This document shows, piece by piece, positions 3,890 through 59,292 of a stretch of 64,000 nt of DNA. The notes under the pieces are model-generated. The model had not been told where the DNA came from and searched no databases. It saw only the letters and a program-made list of their open reading frames with translations. Origin of the DNA: Candidatus Parcubacteria bacterium. Its GTDB lineage: Bacteria; Patescibacteriota; Minisyncoccia; SURF-38. A program made the position numbers and the translations under genes. The stretch's first letter is position 1. Each line of letters begins with the position of its first letter. The stretch is taken from assembly GCA_003599335.1 (NCBI GenBank), contig QZJN01000003.1:4654-68653 (forward strand), read 5' to 3'.

Positions 3890-4159
3890 ATGCCAAAAAC
3901 AAAATCAGCCGAGGAAAAACCAATAGGCGAGATAACTCATTATTACTCTAATCTTGGGGTTGGAATTATAAAACTTAAGGCCGTTTTGAAGGTTGGGGAT
4001 AAGATTAAACTGGTCGGAGCAACCAGTAATTTTGAGCAGGAAGTTGAATCTATACAGATAGAACACAAGCAAGTCCAGACGGCTAAAAAGGGGGATGTCG
4101 TTGGTATTAAAGTTAAAGATAAAGTTCGTGAGGGCGATTTGGTTTATAAAGTAGATTGA
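3890..4159 (+). CDS. Small EF-Tu-domain-2-like beta-barrel protein (translation elongation factor-like small protein)
   Basis: 89 aa. The GDKIKLVG...KKGDVVGIKV...REGDLVYKV pattern resembles domain 2 of translational GTPases. Confidence 0.35.
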   Translation: MPKTKSAEEKPIGEITHYYSNLGVGIIKLKAVLKVGDKIKLVGATSNFEQEVESIQIEHKQVQTAKKGDVVGIKVKDKVREGDLVYKVD

Positions 4160-4162
4160 TTC

Positions 4163-4618
4163 ATGTCGCTTAACTTTTTTGACGTAGGACAACTGGATCT
4201 CTTTTGGTCCTTGTTATTGGCTCTTGTTTTGGGCTCGGTTGTTGGGCTTGAGAGAGAGCGAGTCGGCAAAGAGGCTGGCCTAAGAACCAATGCTCTTGTG
4301 AGCGTCGGATCGGCTTTATTTACTATTCTTTCTGTTCATATGGCAAGCCAGCTCCAAACGCCCGCATTTGATCCTTCACGCATCGCCTCACAGGTGGTTG
4401 TGGGAATAGGTTTTATAGGGGCTGGGCTTATAATTTTCAGAGGAGAGCGTATTGAAAATCTTACAACCGCCGCTACAGTTTGGGTTGTTGCCGCTATTGG
4501 AATGGCTGTTGGATTTGGAATGTATTTGCTTGCCATTCTTACAACATTGCTTGTTTATATATTTTTAGAAATTGCTCAGCGGTTTAAGCCAAGAGAGCAT
4601 AAATCGCAATCAGAATAA
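4163..4618 (+). CDS. MgtC/SapB family membrane protein
   Basis: About 150 aa with 4-5 TM helices and an N-terminal LALVLGSVVGLERE..GLRTNALVSVGSALF signature of the MgtC family. Confidence 0.6.
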   Translation: MSLNFFDVGQLDLFWSLLLALVLGSVVGLERERVGKEAGLRTNALVSVGSALFTILSVHMASQLQTPAFDPSRIASQVVVGIGFIGAGLIIFRGERIENLTTAATVWVVAAIGMAVGFGMYLLAILTTLLVYIFLEIAQRFKPREHKSQSE

Positions 4619-5758
4619 ATGATTAGATCAAAATCTTTTTTAGTTGCGGTCGCAACATTATTTGGGACGACAATTGGCGCTGGTATTTTTGCCTTACCTT
4701 ACGTGATTACTAAGGCCGGTTGGATCATTGGTCTTTTATATTTTACTGTTTTTGGTTTTATAATCACTGTTCTTCAGCTTATGTATGGAGAGGTAATTTT
4801 AAGGACCAAAGAAAATCATCGTCTGCCGGGTTACACAAAAAAGTACCTTGGGCCAGTCTGGGAAAAAATTGTTTTAATGGTTGAAATACTCGGTTCTTAC
4901 GGCGGCCTTCTTGTTTATCTTATTCTGGGAGGAAATTTTTTGTTTTTAGTACTCGGTCCTTTAATTGGGGGCTCTTTTGGCTTATACGTATTTTTGTTCT
5001 GGATAGTTTTTTCTCTTTGGGTTATACGCGGATTAAAACTTGTAGCCAATATTGAATTGGCTCTTGATGGTCTATTGATCCTTATTCTTTTAGGGATTGT
5101 TATTTTTGGTCTGCCTAAATTTTCCTTGGACAACTTGAATGCTCTTTCGCTTAGAGAATTTTTATTACCCTACGGGGTGATTCTTTTTGCTTTATCGGGT
5201 GCGATCGCCATACCAGAAATGAAAGACGAATTGGCGCATAAGAAACAGCTTCTTAAACACGCTATTATTTTGGGAACTGTTTTGGCGATGATTATTTCCC
5301 TTGCTTTCGGTTTGGCTGTTGCCGGAGTTTCCGGTTCAGAAACGACACCTGATGCCTTAAGCGGGCTTCGTAATTTTTTTGGAGCCGGTTTTGTTCAGTG
5401 GGTCGCTTTATTCGGATTATTGGCTATAGCAACTTCTTTTTTGGTCGCCGGTGTTTATCTGAAAGATCTTTTGCATTTTGATCTAAATTTTGATAAAAAG
5501 CTGGCAGGGCTTTTGGTTGTAATCGTACCAATGATAGCTTTTGGTTTAAACATAGGCTCTTTCGTCGGCATTATCGGTTTTTTGGGCGCGGTTACCGTAG
5601 CCTTAAGCTCAATAATAATAATTTTTATTTTCAAAACGGCAAAAAATAAAGGGGATAGGGAGCCGGAATACTCAATAAGAGTTCCTATGCCATTTATTAT
5701 TTTTCTGACAACATTATTTTTGCTTGGCTTCTTGAATCAAATTTTCTTTAATTTATGA
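4619..5758 (+). CDS. Amino-acid permease (aromatic/HAAAP-type amino-acid transporter-like), ~11 TM
   Basis: GAGIFALPYVITKAGW N-terminal motif and a polytopic hydrophobic profile typical of Trp/Tyr/Ser permeases. Confidence 0.5.
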   Translation: MIRSKSFLVAVATLFGTTIGAGIFALPYVITKAGWIIGLLYFTVFGFIITVLQLMYGEVILRTKENHRLPGYTKKYLGPVWEKIVLMVEILGSYGGLLVYLILGGNFLFLVLGPLIGGSFGLYVFLFWIVFSLWVIRGLKLVANIELALDGLLILILLGIVIFGLPKFSLDNLNALSLREFLLPYGVILFALSGAIAIPEMKDELAHKKQLLKHAIILGTVLAMIISLAFGLAVAGVSGSETTPDALSGLRNFFGAGFVQWVALFGLLAIATSFLVAGVYLKDLLHFDLNFDKKLAGLLVVIVPMIAFGLNIGSFVGIIGFLGAVTVALSSIIIIFIFKTAKNKGDREPEYSIRVPMPFIIFLTTLFLLGFLNQIFFNL

Positions 5759-16787: not shown

Positions 16788-17234
16788 CTATATTTTTAAT
16801 GTTCGTTTAATCTCTCTTTGAGTTTCTCTTTTTCTGATAGCTTCTCTTTTGTCTGATTTCTTCTTGCCTTTGGCTAAAGCTAACTCAAGCTTTACCAAAC
16901 CGTGCTTATTATAAAAGCTTAAAGGGATCAAAGTCAAGCCGCCTTGGCGCATTAAACCGATGAGTTTTGCAATTTCTTTTTTGTGCATCAGTAGTTTTCT
17001 TGAGCGGGTTGGATTGTAACCTTGCGGAGGAGTCTGGATTTGAGAAGGACTTAAATGCGCGTTCACCAAAAAAAGTTCTTTTCCGTGAGGAATGATAAAA
17101 GCATGAGATATATCAACCCTGCCTTCTTTGATCGCCTTTACTTCAAAGCCGTTCAAGGCTAAACCGGCCTCGAATGTTTCAAGGATTTGATAGTCGAATC
17201 TGGCTTTCCGATTTGTCGCAAACTCTTTTTTCAC
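16788..17234 (-). CDS. smpB: SsrA-binding protein SmpB
   Basis: MKKEFATNRKARFDYQILETFEAGLALNGFEVKA.. canonical SmpB N-terminus. Confidence 0.9.
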   Translation of the reverse strand: MKKEFATNRKARFDYQILETFEAGLALNGFEVKAIKEGRVDISHAFIIPHGKELFLVNAHLSPSQIQTPPQGYNPTRSRKLLMHKKEIAKLIGLMRQGGLTLIPLSFYNKHGLVKLELALAKGKKKSDKREAIRKRETQREIKRTLKI

Positions 17235-17321: not shown

Positions 17322-18935
17322 ATGGCTCAAAGCGGCACTGTAAAAGATTTAATAACCCAAGCAGTTTCGGAAGCTCTTAAAAGGCTTAAGCTTGAAGCCA
17401 AATTTGCGGTTGAATACCCATCTTTTTCAGAACATGGAGATTATTCAACCAACGTTGCCCTCATTTTGGCTTCCAAACTAAAAAAATCTCCGGTGGAAAT
17501 TGCCTATCAGATAACTGCCGATTTACCCCAACAGCTTAATATGTTTGAGAGAGTTGAGGTTACAGGTTCTGGATTCATAAACTTTTTTTTGCACCAGGAT
17601 TTTGTCCGTTCTCAAATAAAAAATATTTCCGATAAAAATTTTGGCGAACTAAAACTTGGGGATGGTCAGAAAGTTAATATTGAATTTATCTCGGCCAATC
17701 CGACAGGGCCTTTAACCGTCGGTAATTCACGCGGAGCTTTTTTTGGCGATGCTCTCGGTAATATTATGCATTTAGCAGGATATGATGTTGCTAAAGAGTA
17801 TTATGTTAACGACGCCAAAAGTTCAAACCAAATAAGGGAGCTTGGGCGTACAGCCCTTGGAAAGGGGGAGGCCTATAAATCGGATTATTTAGACAGGAAA
17901 CTGGAAGAGTTTAAGAAGAAGGGATTTAAGATAGAAACTCTTGATGAAGTTAGCCTTGGGCATTTAATTGCAAGTTCAATTCATGAAGACATTGAGGAAT
18001 TTGTAAAAGAGCAGTTAAAGATAAAATTTGATAAATGGTTTCATGAGCAAACCCTTTTTGACAAGGAAGTTTTGGATAAAATTTTAAACGATCTGAAGAA
18101 ACGAGATTTAATATACGAAAAAGACGGCGCTTTGTGGTTGAAAACAACACAATTTGGAGATTTACAAGATCAGGTTGTTGTCCGTTCGGAGGCTGGGGGG
18201 CAAGAGGGTCAGCCGACGTATTTTTTGAGCGATATCGGATATCACGCCGACAAATTTAAACGCAAATACGACATCGTTATAGACGTTTTGGGGCCGGATC
18301 ATCAGGGACATATCAAGCGAATGGAAGCCGTTGGCAAGATGCTCGGTTTTAAGGGTAAATTTATTTTACTTTTCACGCAGATTGTCCGTTTTAAAGAGGG
18401 CGGTTTGGCAATGAGACTTTCCAAGAGGTTGGGACAAACAGTAAATCTTGAGTGGCTTTTGGAGCAAGTTGGGCTTGATAGCGCGAGATATTTTTTCTTG
18501 ACTAAATCAATTGACACTCATATGGATTTTGACGTTGATTTGGCTAAAAGCAAAACTCTTCAGAACCCCGTTTTTTATATTCAGTATGCCCATGCAAGAT
18601 TGAGCAGTATTTTGCGTAAGGCCAAAGAGCAAAAATTGAACTCTAATTTCAAAAACATCGGATTGCTTAATGCCGAAGGCGAATTGCAGCTTGTAAAAAA
18701 ATTACTCCGTTTTCCCGAACTTGTCGCGACGATCAGTCAGGATTATCAGGTTCATGCTCTTACACACTATCTTTTAAGTGTTGCAACGGCCGCCAACTCT
18801 TTTTATGAGAAGGAAAGAATTATAAGCGAAGAAAAAGAATTGTCTGAAGCGAGACTATGTTTGATAGAAGCGGCAAAAAATGTTATTTTTAAAGCCTTAA
18901 AGCTGCTTGGCATGAACGCCCCGTTGAAAATGTAG
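17322..18935 (+). CDS. argS: Arginyl-tRNA synthetase
   Basis: N-terminal Arg-tRNA-synthetase add-on domain, class I core (FISANPTGPL..) and a C-terminal DALR anticodon-binding domain. Confidence 0.9.
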   Translation: MAQSGTVKDLITQAVSEALKRLKLEAKFAVEYPSFSEHGDYSTNVALILASKLKKSPVEIAYQITADLPQQLNMFERVEVTGSGFINFFLHQDFVRSQIKNISDKNFGELKLGDGQKVNIEFISANPTGPLTVGNSRGAFFGDALGNIMHLAGYDVAKEYYVNDAKSSNQIRELGRTALGKGEAYKSDYLDRKLEEFKKKGFKIETLDEVSLGHLIASSIHEDIEEFVKEQLKIKFDKWFHEQTLFDKEVLDKILNDLKKRDLIYEKDGALWLKTTQFGDLQDQVVVRSEAGGQEGQPTYFLSDIGYHADKFKRKYDIVIDVLGPDHQGHIKRMEAVGKMLGFKGKFILLFTQIVRFKEGGLAMRLSKRLGQTVNLEWLLEQVGLDSARYFFLTKSIDTHMDFDVDLAKSKTLQNPVFYIQYAHARLSSILRKAKEQKLNSNFKNIGLLNAEGELQLVKKLLRFPELVATISQDYQVHALTHYLLSVATAANSFYEKERIISEEKELSEARLCLIEAAKNVIFKALKLLGMNAPLKM

Positions 18936-24971: not shown

Positions 24972-26294
24972 ATGAAAGAAAAATCTCAAAACAATTTAAT
25001 GGATAAAGTTATTTCGCTTTGTAAACGAAGGGGTTTTATATTTCCCGGTTCTGAAATTTACGGAGGGCTTGCCAACTCCTGGGACTATGGACCATTGGGC
25101 GTTGAACTAAAAAACAACATCAAACAAATGTGGTGGGAGCGCTTTGTGCATCAAAGAGGCGACATTGTTGGCATTGACGCCGCTTTAATAATGAATCCTA
25201 AAGTGTGGGAAGCGAGTGGGCATTTAAAGGAATTTTCTGATCCTTTGGTCGAGTGTAAGGTTTGTCATGAGCGTTTTCGTGCCGACCAGAAAGATATTAT
25301 TGTAGAGCACGAAGAATTTCACGAAAAGCGCAAAGAATCTGCGGGATGGACCGAACCAAAACAATTCAATCTTATGTTTAAAACTTTTATTGGTCCGCTT
25401 CAGGATGAAAAATCAACTGCATATTTTCGTCCCGAAACCGCTCAAGCAATGTTTGTTAATTTTAAAAACGTTGTTGATACAACAAGACAAAACCTGCCAT
25501 TCGGTATTGCTCAAATTGGTAAGGCTTTTCGTAACGAAATTACTACTGGGAATTTTATTTTTCGTACTAAAGAATTCGAGCAGATGGAAATTGAGTATTT
25601 TATTGAAGAAAAAGACTGGCAAAATATTTTTGAAATGTGGCGTAAGGAAATGCTTTTTTGGATCAAAGATCTTGGGGTTAATTTAAAGAAGGTTCATGAA
25701 AGAGAAGTTCCAGACGGGGAACGGGCGCATTATTCCAAGAGAACCGTTGATTTTGATTACGAGTTTCCTTTTGGCAAAGAAGAGCTTTACGGTTTGGCTT
25801 ATCGGACAGATTTTGATTTAAGAAACCACGAGAAGGCTTCCGGTGTAAATCTTAAATATAAAGATGCAAAGACCGGCAAAGAGTTCTGGCCTCATGTCAT
25901 TGAACCAACGTGGGGTGTGGACAGGTCTTTATTAATTGTTTTGCTTGAGGCGTATCACGAAGAAGGAGATAGAGTCGTGCTTAAGCTTCCTTTAAGACTC
26001 GCTCCTTACAAAGTTGCAGTTTTTCCTTTGCTTGCAAACAAAGATAAGCTTGTAGAAAAAGCTAAAGAAATTTATAAAGATTTACAAAAAAATTTCTCGG
26101 TTGCCTGGGACGATCGGGGGAATATCGGTAAAAGGTATTATTCTCAAGATGAAATAGGAACTCCCTGGTGCATAACGGTTGATTTTGAGAGTCTTGAAAA
26201 CGATACAGTTACCGTCAGGGATAGAGATACCGCAAAACAGGAACGCATAAAGGTCGCTGGACTGACAACTTATTTTGAGGATAAGTTAAAATAA
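24972..26294 (+). CDS. glyQS: Glycyl-tRNA synthetase (alpha2 dimeric type)
   Basis: MKEKSQNNLMDKVISLCKRRGFIFPGSEIYGGLANSWDYGPLG.. canonical GlyRS N-terminus with class II motifs. Confidence 0.9.
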   Translation: MKEKSQNNLMDKVISLCKRRGFIFPGSEIYGGLANSWDYGPLGVELKNNIKQMWWERFVHQRGDIVGIDAALIMNPKVWEASGHLKEFSDPLVECKVCHERFRADQKDIIVEHEEFHEKRKESAGWTEPKQFNLMFKTFIGPLQDEKSTAYFRPETAQAMFVNFKNVVDTTRQNLPFGIAQIGKAFRNEITTGNFIFRTKEFEQMEIEYFIEEKDWQNIFEMWRKEMLFWIKDLGVNLKKVHEREVPDGERAHYSKRTVDFDYEFPFGKEELYGLAYRTDFDLRNHEKASGVNLKYKDAKTGKEFWPHVIEPTWGVDRSLLIVLLEAYHEEGDRVVLKLPLRLAPYKVAVFPLLANKDKLVEKAKEIYKDLQKNFSVAWDDRGNIGKRYYSQDEIGTPWCITVDFESLENDTVTVRDRDTAKQERIKVAGLTTYFEDKLK

Positions 26295-26299
26295 AATTA

Positions 26300-26395
26300 A
26301 TATTAATTTTCAATTTACAATTTCCAATCAATTTTCAATGACACAATTTATTAAACCATTTGAAAACTGAAAATTAGAAATTGAAAATTTTTTAA
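26300..26395. repeat. Empty copy of an imperfect inverted-repeat element built from TTGAAAAT/ATTTTCAA units (about 35-nt arms, 22-nt spacer)
   Basis: Left arm ATTTTCAATTTACAATTTCCAATCAATTTTCAATG and right arm CATTTGAAAACTGAAAATTAGAAATTGAAAAT are near reverse complements. Same family as the arms flanking 47745..48113. Confidence 0.5.
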
Positions 26396-26398
26396 AAT

Positions 26399-27682
26399 AT
26401 GGCTTCATATCAGAAATTAACCCTCCCAAATAATCTTCGCTCGGTTACGGTTCAGTTGCCGGAGTCTCAAACCAGTACAGTTTTGGTTTTGGTCCGGGCT
26501 GGATCAAATTATGAAACAAAAAAACAAAACGGCGTGAGTCATTTTCTTGAACACATGCTTTTTAAAGGTACCCAAAAAAGGCCTTCCAAAAAGGTAATCG
26601 CCGAACTTTTGGACAGCGTCGGGGCTTCTTTCAATGCGTTTACTTCAAAAGAATACACCGGATATTACGTAAAAGTTGCTTCCGGCAAAATCGATCTTGC
26701 GCTTGATGTTGTTTCGGATATCTATATAAATTCTTTGCTTGATGCCAGGGAAGTTGAAAAAGAAAGGAGGGTTATTTTGGAGGAGCTTAAAATGAGGGAG
26801 GATTTGCCAATGATAAAGACGCACGAGGCTTTTGAGGAATTGCTTTATGGCAGTCAGCCGGCCGGTTTGCCCATAGGAGGCACAAAAGAAAGCGTAAGCT
26901 CTATAACTCAACAAGAAATCGCAAAATATTATCATCTTCATTATGTTGCGCCAGCAACGACTGTTTGTCTTGTTGCGCCCCAGGATCACAAAGATAGTCT
27001 TGAAAAAATAAAAAATTATTTTGCTCAAATACGGGATCAGGGTTTGGCTCCGGGAGCCCCCAAAACAATCGATGATCAAAAAAAACCTCAGCTTTTAGTA
27101 AAAACAAAATCAACCGATCAGACTCATCTTGCCCTTGGATTCAAGGCTTTTCCCATTGAGCATCCTGATAGATTTTGTCTGGAATTGATTTCTCTTATTT
27201 TGGGAGGAGGGATGAGTTCAAGATTATTTCAGAAGGTAAGAGAAGAGGAAGGCCTTGCCTATTATGTTCAATCCGACATGAATCTTGATACAGATTGCGG
27301 TTATTTTGCCGTTAAGGCCGGTGTTGCTAACGAAAAAGTTGGCTACGCGGTTGAATCAATAATAAATGAAATTAGCGATTTAAAAAAAGGCAATATTGAA
27401 GAAAAGGAGCTTCAAAAAGTTAAAGATCAATTTAAAGGACAAACAGCCTTGTCGTTGGAGTCTTCTTCTGACTGGGCCTCTTTTTACGGTGGACAAGAAA
27501 TTTTAGTGAATAAGGTTTTGACTCCTCAAGAAATGTTTAATCATATAAACAAAGTTTCTCCGGCTGATATCGCGAGGGTTGCTAAAAGTGTTTTTGTTGA
27601 AGAAAAATTAAATCTTGCCATTGTGGGGCCGGTCGGTAAACGGCAGGAGAAGGGTTTTATGAAGCTTTTAGCCATTGATTAG
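26399..27682 (+). CDS. M16 family (pitrilysin/insulinase-like) zinc peptidase
   Basis: Inverted zinc motif HFLEHMLFKG (HxxEH) near the N-terminus; 427 aa. Confidence 0.8.
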   Translation: MASYQKLTLPNNLRSVTVQLPESQTSTVLVLVRAGSNYETKKQNGVSHFLEHMLFKGTQKRPSKKVIAELLDSVGASFNAFTSKEYTGYYVKVASGKIDLALDVVSDIYINSLLDAREVEKERRVILEELKMREDLPMIKTHEAFEELLYGSQPAGLPIGGTKESVSSITQQEIAKYYHLHYVAPATTVCLVAPQDHKDSLEKIKNYFAQIRDQGLAPGAPKTIDDQKKPQLLVKTKSTDQTHLALGFKAFPIEHPDRFCLELISLILGGGMSSRLFQKVREEEGLAYYVQSDMNLDTDCGYFAVKAGVANEKVGYAVESIINEISDLKKGNIEEKELQKVKDQFKGQTALSLESSSDWASFYGGQEILVNKVLTPQEMFNHINKVSPADIARVAKSVFVEEKLNLAIVGPVGKRQEKGFMKLLAID

Positions 27683-43000: not shown

Positions 43001-46000
43001 ATGTTTTCGGAAGCTAGAAATACAAATTCTTTAATTTTTCTTTCATTTTTAGTCGGTGTATTTTTATTTGCCGGTTCGCAAGCTTATGCCGCAACTTCGG
43101 CAACCTCCGTACCTGATATTGCAACATCTTTGGAATCTTATGGAGGAAGGGTTTATAGCCAAACAACGAACAGTAGTACAATTTCAGGTTATTTTGACTA
43201 CAGTCCTTCAACCGACAGTCGTAATATTCCAAATCCTCCCCCAAATTCGGTTTTGGTTGAGGTTGGCTATGGTTCGGATGAACATGATTATCATATGGAA
43301 GTTCAGTTTGGTAAATTTGTCGCCGATCCTGTTACTGGCGCTTGGACAGTTCAATACACAACAAGTCAAATAAGATCAGCCGGTGGCGAAAGAAATGGTT
43401 ACTGGGTTAAGTTAGAGCCAAAAGATTTTACAGGCAATGTCGTTCAAAATGCCTATCTTACGCGTTGGCGATGGAATTCCAGCGGTACTAGCGGCGGTCG
43501 CCCGGGGGATGATAGTAGCCCCGGGGGTGTTTGCGCGCATGCCATGTATCAGAGATACGATCCGACAACCTTTCAGCTTATCGGAAGCAAAATAGAGGGA
43601 GGAAATTGTTCCAAGCGAGGGTATCAGTTAAACAGTAGCTGGATTAGGGGTTTTGTTACGGCGCCTCCTGGCGAATTTATCGTAAGCATTAAAAACTTTA
43701 TTTTTGGAGACGACGCAAAAATGCGAGGCGGCATTGCAGATTGGCGCAAACTCGTTAATTCAACTCTGAACGCAAGATATGTTTCGGATAACCTTCCTAC
43801 AAATTTATCTGTAAATACTCCTTATAGCGGAACGATGACAATCAGAAATTCCGGCAATATTGTTTGGGAATCTGACAATATAATTTCAAAAAGCGGAGAT
43901 TGTTCAACTTTTGATCAGACCGCGCCCGATCCAAATACAGAGTGTCATGAATACTATACAGTTGCCTCGACAGATTTTAAATTAAAACGTTTAGACAGTT
44001 CTCCAATCACCATAACAAGCCCAATGGAATATAGGCGGGTTGTTGACAGGAAATATCAGTGGGTATTGATTCCTTTTGCCTGCGATCCTCCTCCGCCTCC
44101 GGATCCTTGCGATTCAAACCCAAGCGATCCGTTGTGTGATATTTATCAAATTTACTTTAATTCCGAAAGGAGATTTACGCAGAAAGATGGTTTGTTTTCA
44201 ATCCCAAAGGCTCACGCCCAGTCGTGCGATGAGTGGAGCGTTCAGGTTTCCGATACACCGATTTTTAATGTCACAAACGTGGCTCCAAATGATCAGGTTG
44301 ACTTCCCAATTTCGTTTACAACAACAGCTTCGGCCGGAACATATAACTTGCAGTTTCGTATGGTCAGGTCAACAACCAATACCGAATTTGGAGATATAAT
44401 TACGGTTCCTGTTACGGTAACCGCCCCGACGGGCACCATTACTGTAAATTCCGTTAACCAACAGACTTTAAACGCAGCCCCATCGGATTGGACAATCACA
44501 GGGCCTTCAACATTTACCGATTCGGGTTTAGGCCAAAAAACTTATACTACCGCCATAGGTGATGGACAATATACTTTTTCTCCTGTTCCTGGGAGTGGAG
44601 GGCCTTTGTATACTTTGGATTCGGTTAAAGCTATTTCAGGAAATTATGCCAAAATTAAAAGAGAAGGTTTTTCCTTTGGATTTTTGAAAGATTGGGTTGG
44701 TTCTCTTGCTCGGGCGTTTGATACGTCGGGGTCTTCTTGCGGGAGCAACTCTTGCTGGCTGGCAAGCGGAAATTCTGTTACGTTTCAGGTTGCTTGGATT
44801 CCTGAAGCAACGCTTGATCTTTCTCCAGCCTCGCTTAATTTGACCGGCACAATTTATACGCCAAATCCAACAGGTATTGTTTCCGTGCAAAATAATGGAG
44901 CACCGGGTTCAACCTTAAATTGGTCAATTTCCGGGGCAAGCCAAGGATGGCTTTCGGGTTCTCCGGCATCGGGAAACGGCGTTGCCGCTGGTTCTTCCCA
45001 AAATTCAACGATTACGGCAAGCATCAGTGGTTTGTCAGCGGGAACTTACAACGGAAATACGGTTACGTTTGCCGGCACCTCTCAGCCTGGTAATACTGCA
45101 GTGATGAGTGGTCCAAAATCTCTCACCGTCAATCTCACTGTCAACAATCCCGCTCCTTCTATTACTTCGCTTAATCCGAGCAACGCAATTGCAGGCTCTG
45201 GCGGATTTACCCTAACTGTTAACGGTAATAATTTTGTGAATGGTTCGGTTGTGAGGTGGAACGGTTCTAATCGAACAACCACATTTGTTAATCAAAACCA
45301 ATTAACTGCGATTATCAATGCCGCTGACATTGCTTCTCCTGGAACATTCCCTGTAACGGTTTTTAATGCCGCTCCCGGAGGAGGAACTTCAAATTCGGTC
45401 AACCTTACCGTTAGCCAAGTGACCGCCGACATCGACGCCAACGGTTCAGACGGACCTATAACGATTCCTTACAACAGCGCAGCAACAATTACCTGGGCAT
45501 CTTCAAATGCGACAAGTTGTTCCGTTGCGCCAACCGGCTGGACAGGAACATCAGGTTCACAATCAACGGGCAACTTAACCTCTGGTCAAACTTATACCCT
45601 CACCTGCACCAACGGTTCGGTAAATGTTCAAGATATTGTGACTGTCAATGTGCAGCCAAATTCTCAGCCATCTCCTGGAACGGCAACTCATACATCTCCG
45701 GGATCTCAACCAGGAGGATGGTGCTCAAACGATAATAATTGGATTATAAATTGGACTTTTTCAGATACCGATGGCGATACCCAAAATACCTATCAGATCC
45801 AGATAGACAATTCCGGTAATACTTTTCCAAGCCCAGAAATTGATCAGACTCCTCCTCCGGTAAACACCTCAAATTCTTATACAGCCCAAGGGTTAACTTA
45901 TAACGCCACGACTTATTGGTATCGAGTTCGCGTGCAAGATAGTGTTGGTCAGTGGTCGGGTTGGAGCAATGTCGGCAGTTTTACCACAAACAACAACGCT

Positions 46001-46345: not shown

Positions 46346-46385
46346 GATTGTATTTTGTAGTTAGTATCTGGTATTTAGTATCTAA

Positions 46386-46429
46386 AATCAAAATCCTCCG
46401 TAAAGACGGAGGATTTTGATTTTTTAATA
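46386..46429 (+). terminator. Strong rho-independent terminator (18-bp stem AAAATCAAAATCCTCCGT..ACGGAGGATTTTGATTTT followed by TT)
   Basis: Perfect long inverted repeat after the giant gene. Confidence 0.7.
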
Positions 46430-46454: not shown

Positions 46455-47702
46455 ATGAATTACGAAAATCTCAAAAAAGTTGATAAAGAATCCTATAAAA
46501 TTTTTGTTGCTGAACAGGCTCGCCAGCAAGATTACATTAATCTTATTCCTTCCGAAAATTATACTTCTGAAGCCGTTTTAGAGGCTTTAGCTTCGGTATT
46601 TGTAAATAAATATTCAGAAGGTTATCCAAAAGCGAGATATTACCCAGGCAATGAAAATGTTGATCAAATTGAGCTTTTGGGGCAAGAGCGGGCGAGGAAG
46701 CTTTTTAAATTGGGTAAAGAATGGTTTGTAAATGTTCAGCCGTATTCTGGCTCACCGGCAAATCTGGCGGTTTACATTGGGCTTTTAGGAAAGGACGATA
46801 CCGCTCTTGGGATGGAGCTTGCAGCGGGTGGACATTTGACTCACGGGCATAAGGTTTCGGCTTCTGGAAAATTATTTAATTTTATACAATATGGCGTTTC
46901 GTGGGATGGCGTGATTGATTATAAAAAACTTGAGGAGCTTGCAAAAGAAAAAAAACCCAAACTTATTGTTGCCGGCACAACCGCATACCCAAGAACTCTT
47001 GATTTTAAGAGATTCAAACAAATTGCAAATTCCGTGAAAGCTTTATTGATGGTTGATATGGCTCACATTGCCGGGCTTGTGGCCGCCGGAGTCCATCCTT
47101 CGCCGTTTCCTTATGCCGATATTGTTACAACAACAACCCATAAAACGTTGAGGGGTCCAAGAGGCGCAATTATTTTTGCAAAAAACAAAGAGTTGGCCGA
47201 AAAGATAGACAGGGCTGTTTTCCCCGGTATTCAGGGTGGGCCTCACGATAATCAGACTCTTGCTATTGCCGCTGCCCTTAAAGAAGCCGCTTCAGAGAAG
47301 TTTCAAAAGTATGCTTCTAATATAGTCAGAAATGCGAAAATTTTGAGTATTGAGCTTTCTAAGCACGGTTTTGAGCTTGTGAGCGGGGGAACGGATAATC
47401 ACTTGATGCTTATTGATTTAAAAAATAAAGGAATTTCCGGTAGGCAAGCCGAAGAATGGCTCTATCAGGCCGGAATTATTGTAAATAGAAATGCGGTGCC
47501 TTTTGATCCGAGAAAACCAATAGACCCATCGGGTATTCGGTTGGGGACTCCGGCGGTAACGACAAGGGGAATGGGCAAGTCGGAAATGAAAAAAATTGCA
47601 ACTTGGATAAAAGAAGTTATTTTTAATCCGAAATCAGTAAATAAGGTTAGAAAAGAAACGTTATCTTTAACTAAAAAGTTTCCACTTTCATACAGGTTTT
47701 AA
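46455..47702 (+). CDS. glyA: Serine hydroxymethyltransferase
   Basis: Canonical SHMT blocks: YSEGYP, GGHLTHGH, TTTHKTLRGPRG (PLP lysine). Confidence 0.9.
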   Translation: MNYENLKKVDKESYKIFVAEQARQQDYINLIPSENYTSEAVLEALASVFVNKYSEGYPKARYYPGNENVDQIELLGQERARKLFKLGKEWFVNVQPYSGSPANLAVYIGLLGKDDTALGMELAAGGHLTHGHKVSASGKLFNFIQYGVSWDGVIDYKKLEELAKEKKPKLIVAGTTAYPRTLDFKRFKQIANSVKALLMVDMAHIAGLVAAGVHPSPFPYADIVTTTTHKTLRGPRGAIIFAKNKELAEKIDRAVFPGIQGGPHDNQTLAIAAALKEAASEKFQKYASNIVRNAKILSIELSKHGFELVSGGTDNHLMLIDLKNKGISGRQAEEWLYQAGIIVNRNAVPFDPRKPIDPSGIRLGTPAVTTRGMGKSEMKKIATWIKEVIFNPKSVNKVRKETLSLTKKFPLSYRF

Positions 47703-47704
47703 AG

Positions 47705-47748
47705 AATTTTCAATTTCCAATTTCAAATTTTCAATCAATTTTCAATGG
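47705..47748. repeat. Left inverted-repeat arm (AATTTTCAATTTCCAATTTCAAATTTTCAATCAATTTTCAATGG) of the IVS-like cassette
   Basis: Reverse-complementary in composition and units to 48095-48131. Confidence 0.5.
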
Positions 47749-48113
47749 ATCAAATCCAGAAAACAAAATACGATTTGGAGGATCGAACGGCTAAATTTGG
47801 GGAAGAGGTTATTAAGTTTTGTAAAGCTATCCATCAAAATACAATTACAAAACCACTAATTTCTCAGCTTGTTAGGTCTGCTACTAGCATCGGAGCAAAT
47901 TATATGGAAGCAAATGGAGCAAGTTCTCGAAAAGATTTTAGAAACAAGATTTTTATTTGTAAGAAAGAATCTTAAGAAACTAAGCACTGGCTAAGGATGC
48001 TTTTAGAGGCTATGCCGAATAAAAAAGATGAGATACAAGGTTTATGGCGAGAGGTGCAAGAGCTAACTTTAATTTTTCAAAAGATTATCACGTCATTGAA
48101 AATTGAAAATTAA
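47745..48113 (+). pseudogene. Four-helix-bundle protein gene (TIGR02436, 23S rRNA intervening-sequence protein family) interrupted by an in-frame TAA at 47973-47975
   Basis: ORF 47745..47975 (..SIGANYMEANGASSRKDFRNKIFICKKES*) continues in the same frame after the TAA as ETKHWLRMLLEAMPNKKDEIQGLWREVQELTLIFQKIITSLKIEN*. Together these reconstitute the canonical ~122-aa family, including KExxETxxWL. Confidence 0.6.
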
Positions 48114-48131
48114 TAATTGAAAATTTTGAAT
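48095..48131. repeat. Right inverted-repeat arm (CATTGAAAATTGAAAATTAATAATTGAAAATTTTGAATTT) of the IVS-like cassette
   Basis: Pairs with 47705-47748. Confidence 0.5.
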
Positions 48132-48133
48132 TT

Positions 48134-48952
48134 ATGATTATTTCCGGCCGCGAAATGGCCCACAAAGTTTTAAAGAAATTAACCTTAACTTGGCCGCGAG
48201 TTAAAAAGCAGCCCTCTTTAGGTATTATTTTGGTTGGGGAAAATCCAGCATCTTTATCTTTTATTCGAGAAAAAGAAAGGGCTGCCGAAACCGTGGGTAT
48301 TGATTATCGTATTTATGAATTTCCATATTCTGTTTCTACAAATAATCTAAAAAAGAAATTTAAAAGTCTCCTTAAAAAACATACCGCTTGGATTATTCAG
48401 TTGCCTTTGCCAAGGCACATACTTTCTCAAGAGATTTTAGATTTAATCCCATCAGAAAAGGATGCGGATGTGCTTTCGGCTCATTCTTGGTTGCATTTTT
48501 TAGCAGGTTCCAAGATTTTACCGCCGGCAGTTGGAGCCGTTGAGGAAATTTTTAGGCAGTATAAAGTAAAGCCCAAAGGCAAAACTGCAATTGTTGTTGG
48601 GTTTGGCCCTTTGGTTGGCCAGCCAGTTGCTTTTTGGTTGGCGCAACAGAAAGCAAGGGTTAATGTTATTAACGAGGGCCAAAAAAAACCAGAAAATTTT
48701 TTAAAGAAAGCGGATATAATTGTAAGCGGAGTTGGTAAGGCTCATCTCATAAGAGGGGATCATATAAAAAAAGGAGCTGTGGTAATTGATTTTGGTTTTG
48801 CCAAGAAAGACGGCAGGTTTGTCGGGGATGTTGATTTTGTTTCGGTTGCCAAAAGGGCTCGCATTGTGACGCCGGTTCCCGGAGGAGCAGGTCCTTTAAC
48901 CGTGGCGATGCTTATGAAGAATATTTTTGTATTAACAATGAATCAAAAGTAA
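48134..48952 (+). CDS. folD: Bifunctional methylenetetrahydrofolate dehydrogenase/cyclohydrolase
   Basis: FolD N-terminal catalytic and C-terminal NAD(P)-binding blocks (GVGKAHL.., VTPVPGGAGPLTVAML). Confidence 0.9.
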   Translation: MIISGREMAHKVLKKLTLTWPRVKKQPSLGIILVGENPASLSFIREKERAAETVGIDYRIYEFPYSVSTNNLKKKFKSLLKKHTAWIIQLPLPRHILSQEILDLIPSEKDADVLSAHSWLHFLAGSKILPPAVGAVEEIFRQYKVKPKGKTAIVVGFGPLVGQPVAFWLAQQKARVNVINEGQKKPENFLKKADIIVSGVGKAHLIRGDHIKKGAVVIDFGFAKKDGRFVGDVDFVSVAKRARIVTPVPGGAGPLTVAMLMKNIFVLTMNQK

Positions 48953-52262: not shown

Positions 52263-53951
52263 TTAATCCAGAGGCAGGCTTGTTATTTCAACAACCCCTT
52301 TTGTTTTTTTGAGCTGAGATGTAATTGATTTGAGCGATTGTTTGTTTTGTGTAAAGAAATCAATAAGGATGAAAATATCTTCTTTTGTGCGCTGGGTATT
52401 CAAAGAATCTATATTGGTTTTATTTCGGGAAAATATGTTGCCGATATCTTTTACCATGCCGGTTCTGTCCGAAACCTTGAGTTTTAACTGAAACTTTTTT
52501 GAAGCGTTTGGTTTTGGAGATTTGGCAAGACCCAAAGCTTGTTTTATGCGCCTTTTAGCTTCGGAGGTTTTGACGAATTTAAGCCAGTCGCGAGAAGGCT
52601 TTTTGTTTTTTTGAATAAGAATATCAACAACATCTCCGTTCTGAAGTTGTTCGTTTAAAGCAACCAGCTTATCGTTGATTTTTGCTCCAACACACTGATC
52701 GCCAAGCTCGGAATGAATTCTGTAGGCAAAATCAACCGTAGTGGCTCCTTCGGGCAGGTCTATGACATCTCCTTTTGGCGTAAATACAAAGATTCTGTCT
52801 TTAAAAAAATCAATCCTTAAACTTTCGAGAAATGCTCTTGATCCATGGTTTTCTTTTTGCCAATCTCGTAATTGTTCAACCCAAGCGAGTTTTTTGAAGT
52901 GGGGAGATTTTGGTAAGTCTTTTTTCCCAGCTTCGTCTCTGGCCCAGTGAGCTGCGACTCCTGTTTCGCTTTCTTTATGCATCTGGATTGTTCTTATCTG
53001 AAATTCTGTGATTATTCCGTCGATACAGAAAACTGTCGTATGAAGACTTTGATAACCATTGGGTTTTGGTGTGGCTATAAAATCTTTTATGCGTCCGGGC
53101 AGCGGTTTCCAGAGTTTGTGTATTACTCCAAGCGCCCCGTAGCAGTCGGTAACAGCCGGGACTATTATTCTAAAAGCAACCAAATCATAAATTTTTGAGA
53201 AATCCATATCGTATTTTTGGAGTTTTTTGTAAAGACTCCAGTGGTGTTTGGCTCTAAAATCGAGCTGCAAGATATTTATGTTTTCTTTTTTAAGTTCTTT
53301 GGCCAAAATTGGTTCTACTTTTTTCAAATATTCAATTCTATCTTCGTACTTATGGCCTATTTGTTTGAGGAGCCATTTATACTCGTTTGGATGTAAAACC
53401 GGGAAACACAGATCTTCAAGTTCGCTTTTTATGTTCCCCATGCCGAGGCGACTCGCAAGAGGAGTGTAGATTTCCATTGTTTTTTGGCATATACGGCGCT
53501 GATCTGCTGGTTTGTGGTATTTGATTGTGCGTATGTTATGAAGTCTGTCAGCTATTTTTATAAGCACAACCCTAATATCTTCGGCCATTGCCAAAAGCAG
53601 TTTTCTAAAATTTTCAATATTGCTTTTCCCTGCTTGATAAGGCAGTTTCGATATTTTAGTTGCACCTTTTACTAAAAAGACAATTTCTTCGCCAAATTCT
53701 TTCTGCAAGTCAGCCTCTTTGACTTGAGTGTCTTCCAAAACATCATGCAGTAAAGCCGCAGCTATGGTTGTTGAATCCAGTTTCAATTGAGCGAGAATTT
53801 TAGCGACTTCAACGAGATGAGTAATATATGGCTCTCCGGAAAGTCTTTTTTGATCTTCGTGAGCTTTACTGGCAAGTTCAAAAGCTTGTCGTATAAGCTT
53901 TACGTCTTTTTCCAAAAGATAAGATATTTCTTTTGATAAAACTTCCCACAT
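52263..53951 (-). CDS. rel: Bifunctional (p)ppGpp synthetase/hydrolase (RelA/SpoT family), compact 562-aa form
   Basis: N-terminal HD hydrolase domain (HDVLEDT), RelA_SpoT synthetase domain, TGS and a C-terminal ACT-like region. Confidence 0.85.
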   Translation of the reverse strand: MWEVLSKEISYLLEKDVKLIRQAFELASKAHEDQKRLSGEPYITHLVEVAKILAQLKLDSTTIAAALLHDVLEDTQVKEADLQKEFGEEIVFLVKGATKISKLPYQAGKSNIENFRKLLLAMAEDIRVVLIKIADRLHNIRTIKYHKPADQRRICQKTMEIYTPLASRLGMGNIKSELEDLCFPVLHPNEYKWLLKQIGHKYEDRIEYLKKVEPILAKELKKENINILQLDFRAKHHWSLYKKLQKYDMDFSKIYDLVAFRIIVPAVTDCYGALGVIHKLWKPLPGRIKDFIATPKPNGYQSLHTTVFCIDGIITEFQIRTIQMHKESETGVAAHWARDEAGKKDLPKSPHFKKLAWVEQLRDWQKENHGSRAFLESLRIDFFKDRIFVFTPKGDVIDLPEGATTVDFAYRIHSELGDQCVGAKINDKLVALNEQLQNGDVVDILIQKNKKPSRDWLKFVKTSEAKRRIKQALGLAKSPKPNASKKFQLKLKVSDRTGMVKDIGNIFSRNKTNIDSLNTQRTKEDIFILIDFFTQNKQSLKSITSQLKKTKGVVEITSLPLD

Positions 53952-59046: not shown

Positions 59047-59137
59047 GGGTGGTCGGGTTTTGGACTTGACAATTTATATTTATCTGCTATAATATAAGTA
59101 TTGTAAATTACATATTTTTTGTGTTGTTTATAATAAT

Positions 59138-59246
59138 CTATTCGTGAGTAGCTTTCTCTGCAAGGAATCCCTCCTTTACTTTGCAAAGAGGCCTAAGTTT
59201 TGGGATTAGCTCCTTGTGGGCATTTGTTCCAAAGACTCACGAATAG
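59138..59246. repeat. 109-nt element with perfect 12-bp terminal inverted repeats (CTATTCGTGAGT / ACTCACGAATAG) and internal imperfect stems; candidate small structured RNA or MITE-like element
   Basis: Terminal IR and internal complementary blocks (CTCTGCAA..TTGCAAAGAG; GGAATCCC..GGGATTAG). Located between the pth 3' end and the mfd 5' end. Confidence 0.35.
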
Positions 59247-59292
59247 GTTAATGTAAACAATCCCGGCTAAAACCGCATAGAAATATGCGGCT

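Follow-up and report, generated by a model that had tools for sequence, protein, structure and literature searches.

Since the early 1990s, 23S rRNA has been known to harbour intervening sequences (IVSs) encoding the S23p protein (Leptospira, Coxiella burnetii and others), at helix 25 or helix 45, and S23p, a four-helix-bundle (4HB) protein, is a homologue of Avd, the accessory protein of diversity-generating retroelements. Here we analyse a 64-kb genome fragment (~40% G+C; hereafter the window, meaning the whole stretch) of a bacterium of the Candidate Phyla Radiation (CPR), Candidatus Parcubacteria bacterium, in which a short hairpin lies between glyQS and an M16 peptidase gene, and an element with the same kind of arms, enclosing a 4HB gene, lies between glyA and folD; they are called below the empty and the loaded copy. 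The hairpin is probably a member, devoid of an open reading frame (ORF), of a CPR-wide family of IVS-like, heptamer-armed 4HB cassettes, derived from a loaded cassette and tolerated as an insertion by virtue of its stem.

The IVS of the Coxiella 23S rRNA gene is 428 nt long, has a 28-bp terminal inverted-repeat stem and is excised by RNase III; two or three tandem GACAGAT heptamers stand right before the S23p ATG, the ORF is under reductive evolution, and the distribution of S23p IVSs is sporadic and horizontal (PMC4990558). The rRNA genes of CPR bacteria hold insertions encoding 23S_rRNA_IVP proteins, together with short ORF-less insertions at the classical IVS sites (PMC11270868). Tandem heptamers by start codons, occasionally inside ORFs, have been described as the TAACTGA repeats of Beggiatoaceae, cyanobacteria and Bacteroidetes, and those upstream of start codons were proposed as binding sites for post-transcriptional regulators; the BOGUAY genome has one inverted set among ~170 heptamer arrays (PMC4679880). 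According to Mrazek (2007), as cited in the same paper, heptamers are the commonest long simple-sequence repeat in bacteria.

Results

An empty and a loaded copy of one element

A sequence-only reading of the window had reported a compact inverted-repeat hairpin between glyQS and the M16 peptidase gene, and the arms, the period-7 arrays and the RNA fold confirm it. The 104-nt spacer between the two genes is filled by an imperfect AT-rich hairpin (26305-26389, 85 nt), whose arms are arrays of degenerate 7-nt units, AATTTTC on the left and GAAAATT on the right. The repeat search gave arms of 22 nt (26305-26326 / 26368-26389) with 86% complementarity, and the termini are perfect 12-nt inverted repeats (AATTTTCAATTT / AAATTGAAAATT). 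In the minimum-energy fold of the + strand RNA, 26305-26389 is paired (four helices, 27 bp, 21-nt loop, -15.0 kcal/mol). There is no long ORF inside the hairpin: the sole enclosed frame is an 11-codon ATG...TGA at 26338-26370, which is probably an ORF remnant and not a gene, its first 11 nt (ATGACACAATT) matching the 5' end of the 4HB ORFs of L202 (ATGACCCAATT) and L216 (ATGACTCAATT).

The loaded copy spans 47705-48127, with the same kind of arms as the empty hairpin, and its arms pair in both the minimum-energy and the centroid folds of 47695-48140. Its 4HB ORF has an in-frame TAA at 47973-47975, a position at which 20 of 20 aligned homologues have Gln (CAA); the ORF is either a pseudogene through a single C>T change or affected by a sequencing error. 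The FolD protein of the window is 100% identical to a protein of a 'Candidatus Parcubacteria bacterium' metagenome-assembled genome (MAG). Besides the outer 12-mers, the empty and loaded copies share the irregular junction CAATCAATTTTCAATG (16/16) and the sequence TGAAAATTA..AATTGAAAATTTT (consensus TTGAAAAyTGAAAATTArwAATTGAAAATTTT), and on these three features the earlier assignment of both to one family holds. Just upstream of glyA, at 46357-46423, a (TAGTATC) x3.3 array runs straight into a hairpin whose 18-bp stem is perfect and whose loop is 4 nt (AAAATCAAAATCCTCCGT / ACGGAGGATTTTGATTTT).

Within the window the motif is rare and stands in inverted pairs. Of two 10-mers, AATTTTCAAT has 7 matches in the 64 kb and ATTGAAAATT has 4 (~0.2 expected for each); apart from one lone match at 53609, they cluster at 26.3 kb, at 47.7/48.1 kb and at 35.5 kb inside leuS. 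Tandem Repeats Finder (TRF) found period-7 arrays at 26305-26339 (5.4 copies), 26360-26389 (4.3 copies), 47705-47746, 48095-48125, 35529-45 and 36357-86. Among the 18 pairs of inverted repeats of at least 18 nt lying within 600 nt of each other, the loaded copy ranks 1-2 and the empty hairpin 8. The bare heptamer array is widespread across phyla and mostly unpaired (see below), so that the refutation named by the sequence-only reading, a ubiquitous AT-rich pattern, applies in part to the motif and does not apply to the paired element; the observation itself stands, because the arms are period-7 arrays and the 10-mers cluster far above expectation. Another inverted repeat of the window, at 59124-59260 between two minus-strand genes (26-nt arms, 88% complementary, 85 nt apart), is unrelated to the heptamer family.

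Heptamer-armed 4HB cassettes in CPR bacteria

A metagenome scan with alignment of 4HB homologues gave 80 loci, at which 72 genes had enough flanking sequence to be scored. The 4HB protein has thousands of homologues at 70-77% identity, the few source-named ones being from Patescibacteria/CPR. The flanking arrays were inverted-dominant at 56 of the 72 genes, direct-dominant at 5 and neither at 11, in agreement with the proposal that the stem element can carry the 4HB gene. The cassettes have one layout: the stop of the upstream gene, an AATTTTC-type left arm, the ORF, the right arm, 3-10 nt, and the ATG of the next co-directional gene. The left arm ends ...CAAT[ACG]AATTTTCA-ATG (also written ...CAATNAATTTTCA-ATG), its final triplet being the 4HB start codon, and the right arm ends ...TTCAATGAAAATTGTAAATTGAAAATT.

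The arm units vary between cassettes (AATTTTC, AATTTTG, AATTTTA, CAGTTTT, AGCAAGT), and in the sequences compared the two arms of a cassette are shown to co-vary: the unit that prevails in the left arm (TTTCAA, TTTGAA or TTTAAA) has its complement in the right arm in 31 of the 32 scorable cassettes (Fisher p = 2e-6), and own-arm complementarity is 40.2, a value that 0 of 2000 permutations reached, against 36.8 for random pairing. When cassettes from unrelated contexts are aligned, arms and ORF together reach up to 84% identity over 400-460 nt; since the flanks are unrelated, arms and ORF behave as one dispersed unit. Whether other copies enclose 4HB genes or other small ORFs had been put forward as a check, and 4HB genes are indeed enclosed; no second cargo type was found between paired arrays, no convincing ORF being present at L106 and L134. 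The paired arrays of L060 enclose an nrdR-like gene on the opposite strand (by-eye reading of the N-terminus). The right-arm pattern had 0 matches in viral contigs.

Some 4HB loci have direct flanks (L001 9900-10470 and L001 1-520), for example a ~30-nt direct repeat (TTCAATCAAAATTCAAAATTAGAAATTAAA). At L009, a 4HB cassette with the arms of this family is followed, ~1 kb further downstream, by a gene for a Y1 (IS200/IS605-type) transposase (3976-4668).

Kinship of the empty hairpin with the cassettes

The closest comparison is with L202, a 4HB cassette on an unrelated contig: the left half of the empty copy matches its left arm at 39 of 44 nt, running past the start codon into the ORF and including ATGACxCAATT, and the right half matches its post-stop right arm at 37 of 40 nt. 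In a five-way alignment of left arms (among them those of the empty copy and of 4HB cassettes from other contigs) TCAATCAATTTTCAATG is invariant, and the details common to the empty copy and the unrelated-contig cassettes include the non-periodic CAATCAATTTTCAATGAC and TGAAAATTAGAAATTGAAAATT. The empty hairpin also has the arms of a cassette, AATTTTC-type on the left and GAAAATT-type on the right, the latter ending AAATTGAAAATT, and the placement of a cassette: intercistronic, co-oriented, and with the next ATG 9 nt after the right arm (3-10 nt in the family). Co-directional genes are likewise separated by ORF-less hairpins laid out in this way in Curtiss-, Levy-, Nealson-, Moran-, Magasanik- and Saccharibacteria; examples are L117 before glyA, L089, and L125, upstream of an ORF that begins like a thioredoxin reductase (by-eye reading).

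Occupied and empty orthologous junctions

The gene order argS-ileS-recO-x-glyQS-M16-AI2E is kept in relatives with 60-71% M16 identity, whose glyQS|M16 spacers are listed in Table 1. At glyA|folD, L227 and L229 have a stop/start overlap (ATGA), and L228 has a 77-nt hairpin of opposite arm order (L228 171-247); a hairpin of that order also lies upstream of M16 in L224 (1-69). Both window copies are lineage-specific gains, because the relatives have short or overlapping junctions or other arrays; as judged from these comparisons, the empty hairpin is shown to be an acquisition of this lineage at the glyQS|M16 junction, co-oriented with both genes. The two junctions are hot spots for heptamer-array elements.

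The opposite order (A-rich arm first, T-rich second) is also found in Thermoanaerobaculia/Acidobacteria loci (L027, L034, L050, L127); the hairpin of L034 adjoins a tRNA-like sequence, identified by eye only. Between leuS and glyA, the window has G+C-rich islands at 38000-42000 and 44000-46000 (0.46-0.52 vs ~0.40), and the distance from leuS to the next 415-aa gene is ~1 kb in L140 (where that gene is called glyA by length and position) vs ~9 kb in the window; the G+C-rich block between leuS and glyA may have been acquired.

Heptamer arrays as simple repeats

A scan for AATTTTCAATTTNYAATTT, with one genome per species, gave at least 120 loci; those listed span Bacteroidota, Thermoanaerobaculia/Acidobacteriota, Planctomycetota, cyanobacteria, CPR and others. 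A strong inverted partner lies within 700 nt at 26 of the 120 among the matches listed. Fifteen of the paired loci listed are ordered GAAAATT...AATTTTC, mostly outside CPR, and 11 have the order of the window, AATTTTC...GAAAATT, most of these being CPR or unclassified MAGs and one a Saprospiraceae MAG. That every (AATTTTC)n array flanks a 4HB gene was considered and rejected: among the 120 listed, 3 are within 8 kb of such a gene and 1 is adjacent to it.

The TTCCAAT-type repeats that had been noticed inside leuS are real: the (AATTTCC) x4.3 array is in frame. The AATTT[CT]C-type arrays of leuS and their GC-rich insert CCGCCCAAGGCGGATCGGCCTCGGGCTGAC are translated in frame (ISPPKADRPRADNFQFS) within a variable loop of LeuS. 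An unrelated 4HB cassette has the same GC-rich insert in its left arm (L166 675-700), and GC mini-hairpins resembling it are present in L139 (9899-9985) and in the right-arm or hairpin regions of L183 and L060; the insert has the look of a further small element, one nesting within heptamer arrays. The leuS of the relative L139 has TGAATCA x4.6 and ACAAAGT x7.7 arrays (16891-16922, 18013-18063), perfect or nearly so, and the leuS arrays of the window and of L139 translate as 7-residue-periodic loops, at positions differing by lineage.

Table 1 Features of the two window copies, of leuS and of the orthologous glyQS|M16 spacers.
Feature	Position	Strand	Details
Left arm, empty hairpin	26305-26339	+	AATTTTCAATTTACAATTTCCAATCAATTTTCAAT; units AATTTTC/AATTTAC/AATTTCC/AATC/AATTTTC; ends in junction CAATCAATTTTCAAT(G)
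Hairpin centre, empty hairpin	26340-26359	+	GACACAATTTATTAAACCAT
Right arm, empty hairpin	26360-26389	+	TTGAAAACTGAAAATTAGAAATTGAAAATT; end 9 nt before M16 ATG (26399)
Mini-ORF, hairpin centre	26338-26370	+	ATG ACA CAA TTT ATT AAA CCA TTT GAA AAC TGA
glyQS, class II glycyl-tRNA synthetase, upstream gene	24972-26294	+	stop TAA 26292-26294, 10 nt before left arm
M16 (insulinase-family) peptidase, downstream gene	26399-27682	+	100% identical to P0121 of 'Candidatus Parcubacteria bacterium' MAG
Left arm, loaded copy	47705-47747	+	last three bases are the 4HB start codon; starts 2 nt after stop of glyA (SHMT)
4HB ORF, loaded copy	47745-48113	+	PF05635 23S_rRNA_IVP E = 1e-15; TIGR02436 E = 2e-22
Right arm, loaded copy	48093-48127	+	overlaps last ORF codons (SLKIEN*); ends 6 nt before folD ATG (48134)
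Heptamer units in leuS, direct orientation	35486-35546	+	35486-35499 and 35530-35546 around GC-rich 30-nt quasi-palindromic insert 35500-35529
Perfect (AATTTCC) x4.3 tandem array in leuS	36357-36386	+	translated ISNFQFPIS; replaces loop conserved in relatives
glyQS|M16 spacer, L140, L141, L142			7 nt
glyQS|M16 spacer, L226			6 nt
glyQS|M16 spacer, L225			45 nt, T/G-rich heptamer array
glyQS|M16 spacer, L224	L224 1-69		at least 69 nt, A-rich then T-rich arrays
glyQS|M16 spacer, L139			116 nt, (AAAAATT)3 over stop codon + two GC-rich hairpins

Discussion

Several results weigh against descent of the hairpin from a mobile loaded cassette. Near-identical cassettes at different loci were sought, and the best non-syntenic pair has 84% identity, with none above 95%; the cassettes have no recognisable transposase, the 4HB gene being the sole cargo seen; and neither window copy has a clear target-site duplication (TTAAAATA flanks the empty hairpin at 26286-26293 and 26392-26399, amid very AT-rich sequence, and there is nothing comparable around the loaded copy). 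The earlier designation as a mobile element is supported as far as gain is concerned, relatives being without a copy at both junctions, and stays conjectural as to transposition. The arms of the empty copy score 34 with each other, vs 42 and 51 with the arms of the loaded copy, a poorer own-arm pairing that fits decay. The putative ORF remnant is no longer than ~11 nt and resembles the arrays in its letters (CAATT). In many empty hairpins of CPR bacteria the tip is a different one, TTTTCAAA...TTTGAAAA, with no ATG, so that empty copies may form a separate lineage and not be in-situ deletions. Part of the similarity could be convergent, given that heptamer arrays arise widely, also inside leuS. 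As to the fold, the + strand of the empty hairpin has z = -1.8, with 8 of 200 shuffles equally good, and the - strand folds better (-21.8 kcal/mol, z = -2.8): the stem is real, weak and very AU-rich, and its thermodynamic significance is modest. Over the 72 cassettes sense RNA folds no better than antisense (-28.7 vs -30.1 kcal/mol), and there is therefore no signature of selection on transcript structure.

The hairpin could be a local simple-sequence repeat, in which a heptamer was expanded by replication slippage and the second arm came from an inverted duplication or a template switch, with no 4HB descent and no mobility. This is in line with the occurrence of (AATTTTC)n in at least 120 species-level genomes of many phyla, of which, among those listed, 26 of 120 are paired and 1 of 120 is beside a 4HB gene, with the arrays of other heptamers in leuS loops and in the spacers of relatives, and with the rank of heptamers among long simple-sequence repeats in bacteria as reported by Mrazek (2007, as cited in PMC4679880). 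We nevertheless consider it unlikely, given the non-periodic details shared with cassettes on unrelated contigs, the 39/44 and 37/40 matches to L202, the layout identical to that of the loaded copy and the identical terminal 12-mers. A host cis-regulatory RNA is equally improbable in our estimation. Its stem would have been selected for mRNA processing or stabilisation (an RNase III site, protection of the glyQS 3' end) or for control of M16 translation, as would suit a hairpin that lies exactly between the stop and start of co-directional genes, in a placement recurring in CPR operons, with a right arm ending 3-10 nt before the next ATG; S23p IVS stems are moreover cleaved by RNase III (PMC4990558), and heptamers upstream of starts have been proposed as regulator sites (PMC4679880). 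However, the hairpin is absent in the closest relatives, where the genes are 6-7 nt apart or overlap, and this absence counts against any conserved host function; the lack of a sense-strand folding bias, the weak z-score and the lack of an Rfam match also speak against it (no match at the gathering threshold, and at E <= 1 merely a chance match to an internal ribosome entry site outside the hairpin).

A quite improbable third explanation works at the DNA level, the arms being a heptamer binding-site array, or a cruciform, for a protein (perhaps that of the 4HB gene) that would act in recombination, replication or the nucleoid. The complementarity of the arms is symmetric in the Watson-Crick sense and favours neither RNA strand, distant CPR lineages have the unit sequence in common, and the direct flanking arrays at some 4HB genes (5/72; L001) fit site arrays better than a stem; on the other side, the strict orientation with respect to the flanking genes suggests a transcript-level constraint, and we know of no demonstrated DNA-sequence specificity of PF05635 proteins, which we count against this explanation. 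Least probable of all, and only barely credible, is an intrinsic terminator of glyQS or a promoter of the M16 gene: there is a T-run after the stem (GAAAATTTTTT) and one sigma-70-like match (TTGAAA-17-GAAAAT, 26360-26388), but no terminator-like site was found in 25800-26900, the stem is nearly without G-C pairs, the promoter-like matches (1) are fewer than the shuffle mean (2.1), and the same arms are found inside operons whose genes overlap in relatives. The terminator, promoter and Rfam readings of the hairpin were rejected on scans of the site.

Descent from a 4HB cassette remains our preferred explanation. The cassette can be regarded as an IVS-like element in an intercistronic mRNA spacer, because its full form carries a PF05635 gene within hairpin arms. 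The ancestral form would have been a loaded cassette with inverted heptamer arms around a PF05635 gene starting at the end of the left arm, from which the empty hairpin would have arisen by losing its ORF, whether at the present site or ahead of insertion, while keeping both arms and ~11 nt of the ORF 5' end; the decay seen in the ORF of the other window copy is in keeping with such a course. On the polycistronic transcript the arms could form an AU-rich stem of ~27-35 bp, which would restore the proximity of the glyQS stop to the M16 start (flanks of 10 and 9 nt; 2 and 6 nt in the loaded copy). Such a re-juxtaposition of stop and start would explain how insertions are tolerated in tightly coupled, Shine-Dalgarno-poor operons; most start codons of the window are without Shine-Dalgarno motifs, and their upstream 30 nt are AT-rich. 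The earlier suggestion of RNase III-type processing stems has a precedent in the S23p IVSs, which carry heptamers too, and by analogy with these rRNA elements it may be speculated that the stem is an RNase III substrate; no RNase III signature motif was found in the six-frame translation of the 64-kb window. In our view the element is selfish or neutral and does not serve the host in regulation.

A bolder proposal, which we put forward tentatively and consider doubtful as a whole, is that 4HB cassettes are an undescribed CPR-wide class of mobile hairpins colonising operon stop/start junctions as well as rRNA helices, that their Avd-like protein acts on its own heptamer arms (in mobility, arm homogenisation or hairpin recognition), and that gene-less hairpins are non-autonomous derivatives comparable to miniature inverted-repeat transposable elements (MITEs). 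For the origin of IVSs, their mode of spread and the role of the 4HB protein, the CPR cassettes are a large natural data set: they appear very abundant and stereotyped, they lie in ordinary operons, they come with and without the gene, and their orthologous sites may be occupied or empty, all of use in defining element ends, testing mobility and finding what the protein binds. For annotation, hairpins and heptamer arrays, some of them translated in essential genes (leuS), recurrently vary the spacers and loops of these reduced genomes.

In the literature searched there was no account of the CPR hairpins, nor of 4HB genes with heptamer flanks at sites other than rRNA, which is not proof of novelty. 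Among the known systems, the hairpin resembles REP/REPIN sequences with their RAYT transposases in being an intergenic hairpin repeat of two inverted units between co-directional genes, and differs from them in that they are G+C-rich unique palindromes moved by a Y1 transposase, none being linked to the window hairpin. Tandem heptanucleotide repeats (long simple-sequence repeats, TAACTGA, and the short tandemly repeated repetitive (STRR) sequences, heptanucleotide repeats reportedly described in cyanobacteria by Mazel in 1990) are likewise of period 7, mostly intergenic and phylogenetically patchy, but they are described as direct arrays, whereas in the window two arrays face each other in opposite orientation across a gene or a short loop. 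With MITEs the hairpin shares a small size (85 nt), perfect 12-nt termini, ends common to a longer gene-bearing element, presence/absence at orthologous sites and many copies; unlike them, it has no recognisable transposase or clear target-site duplication, and its arms are simple-sequence arrays and not unique sequence. The short ORF-less IVSs of rRNA (Salmonella-type; CPR 23S) are alike in being bare stem-loops of ~100 nt related to ORF-bearing IVSs, although the window hairpin lies outside rRNA, the likeness being one of position and kind. The window has no rRNA (Rfam scan, gathering threshold), and because they are not in rRNA its elements are not S23p IVS members in the strict sense; they sit between protein-coding genes, and their arms are almost wholly AT-rich heptamers. 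The empty copy has the terminal inverted-repeat stem of an IVS without the PF05635/TIGR02436 ORF, which the loaded copy has. The S23p IVS is nevertheless the closest known system, sharing with these elements the inverted-repeat stem, the heptamers before the ORF, the ORF family and the ORF decay, all of which are seen in the loaded copy.

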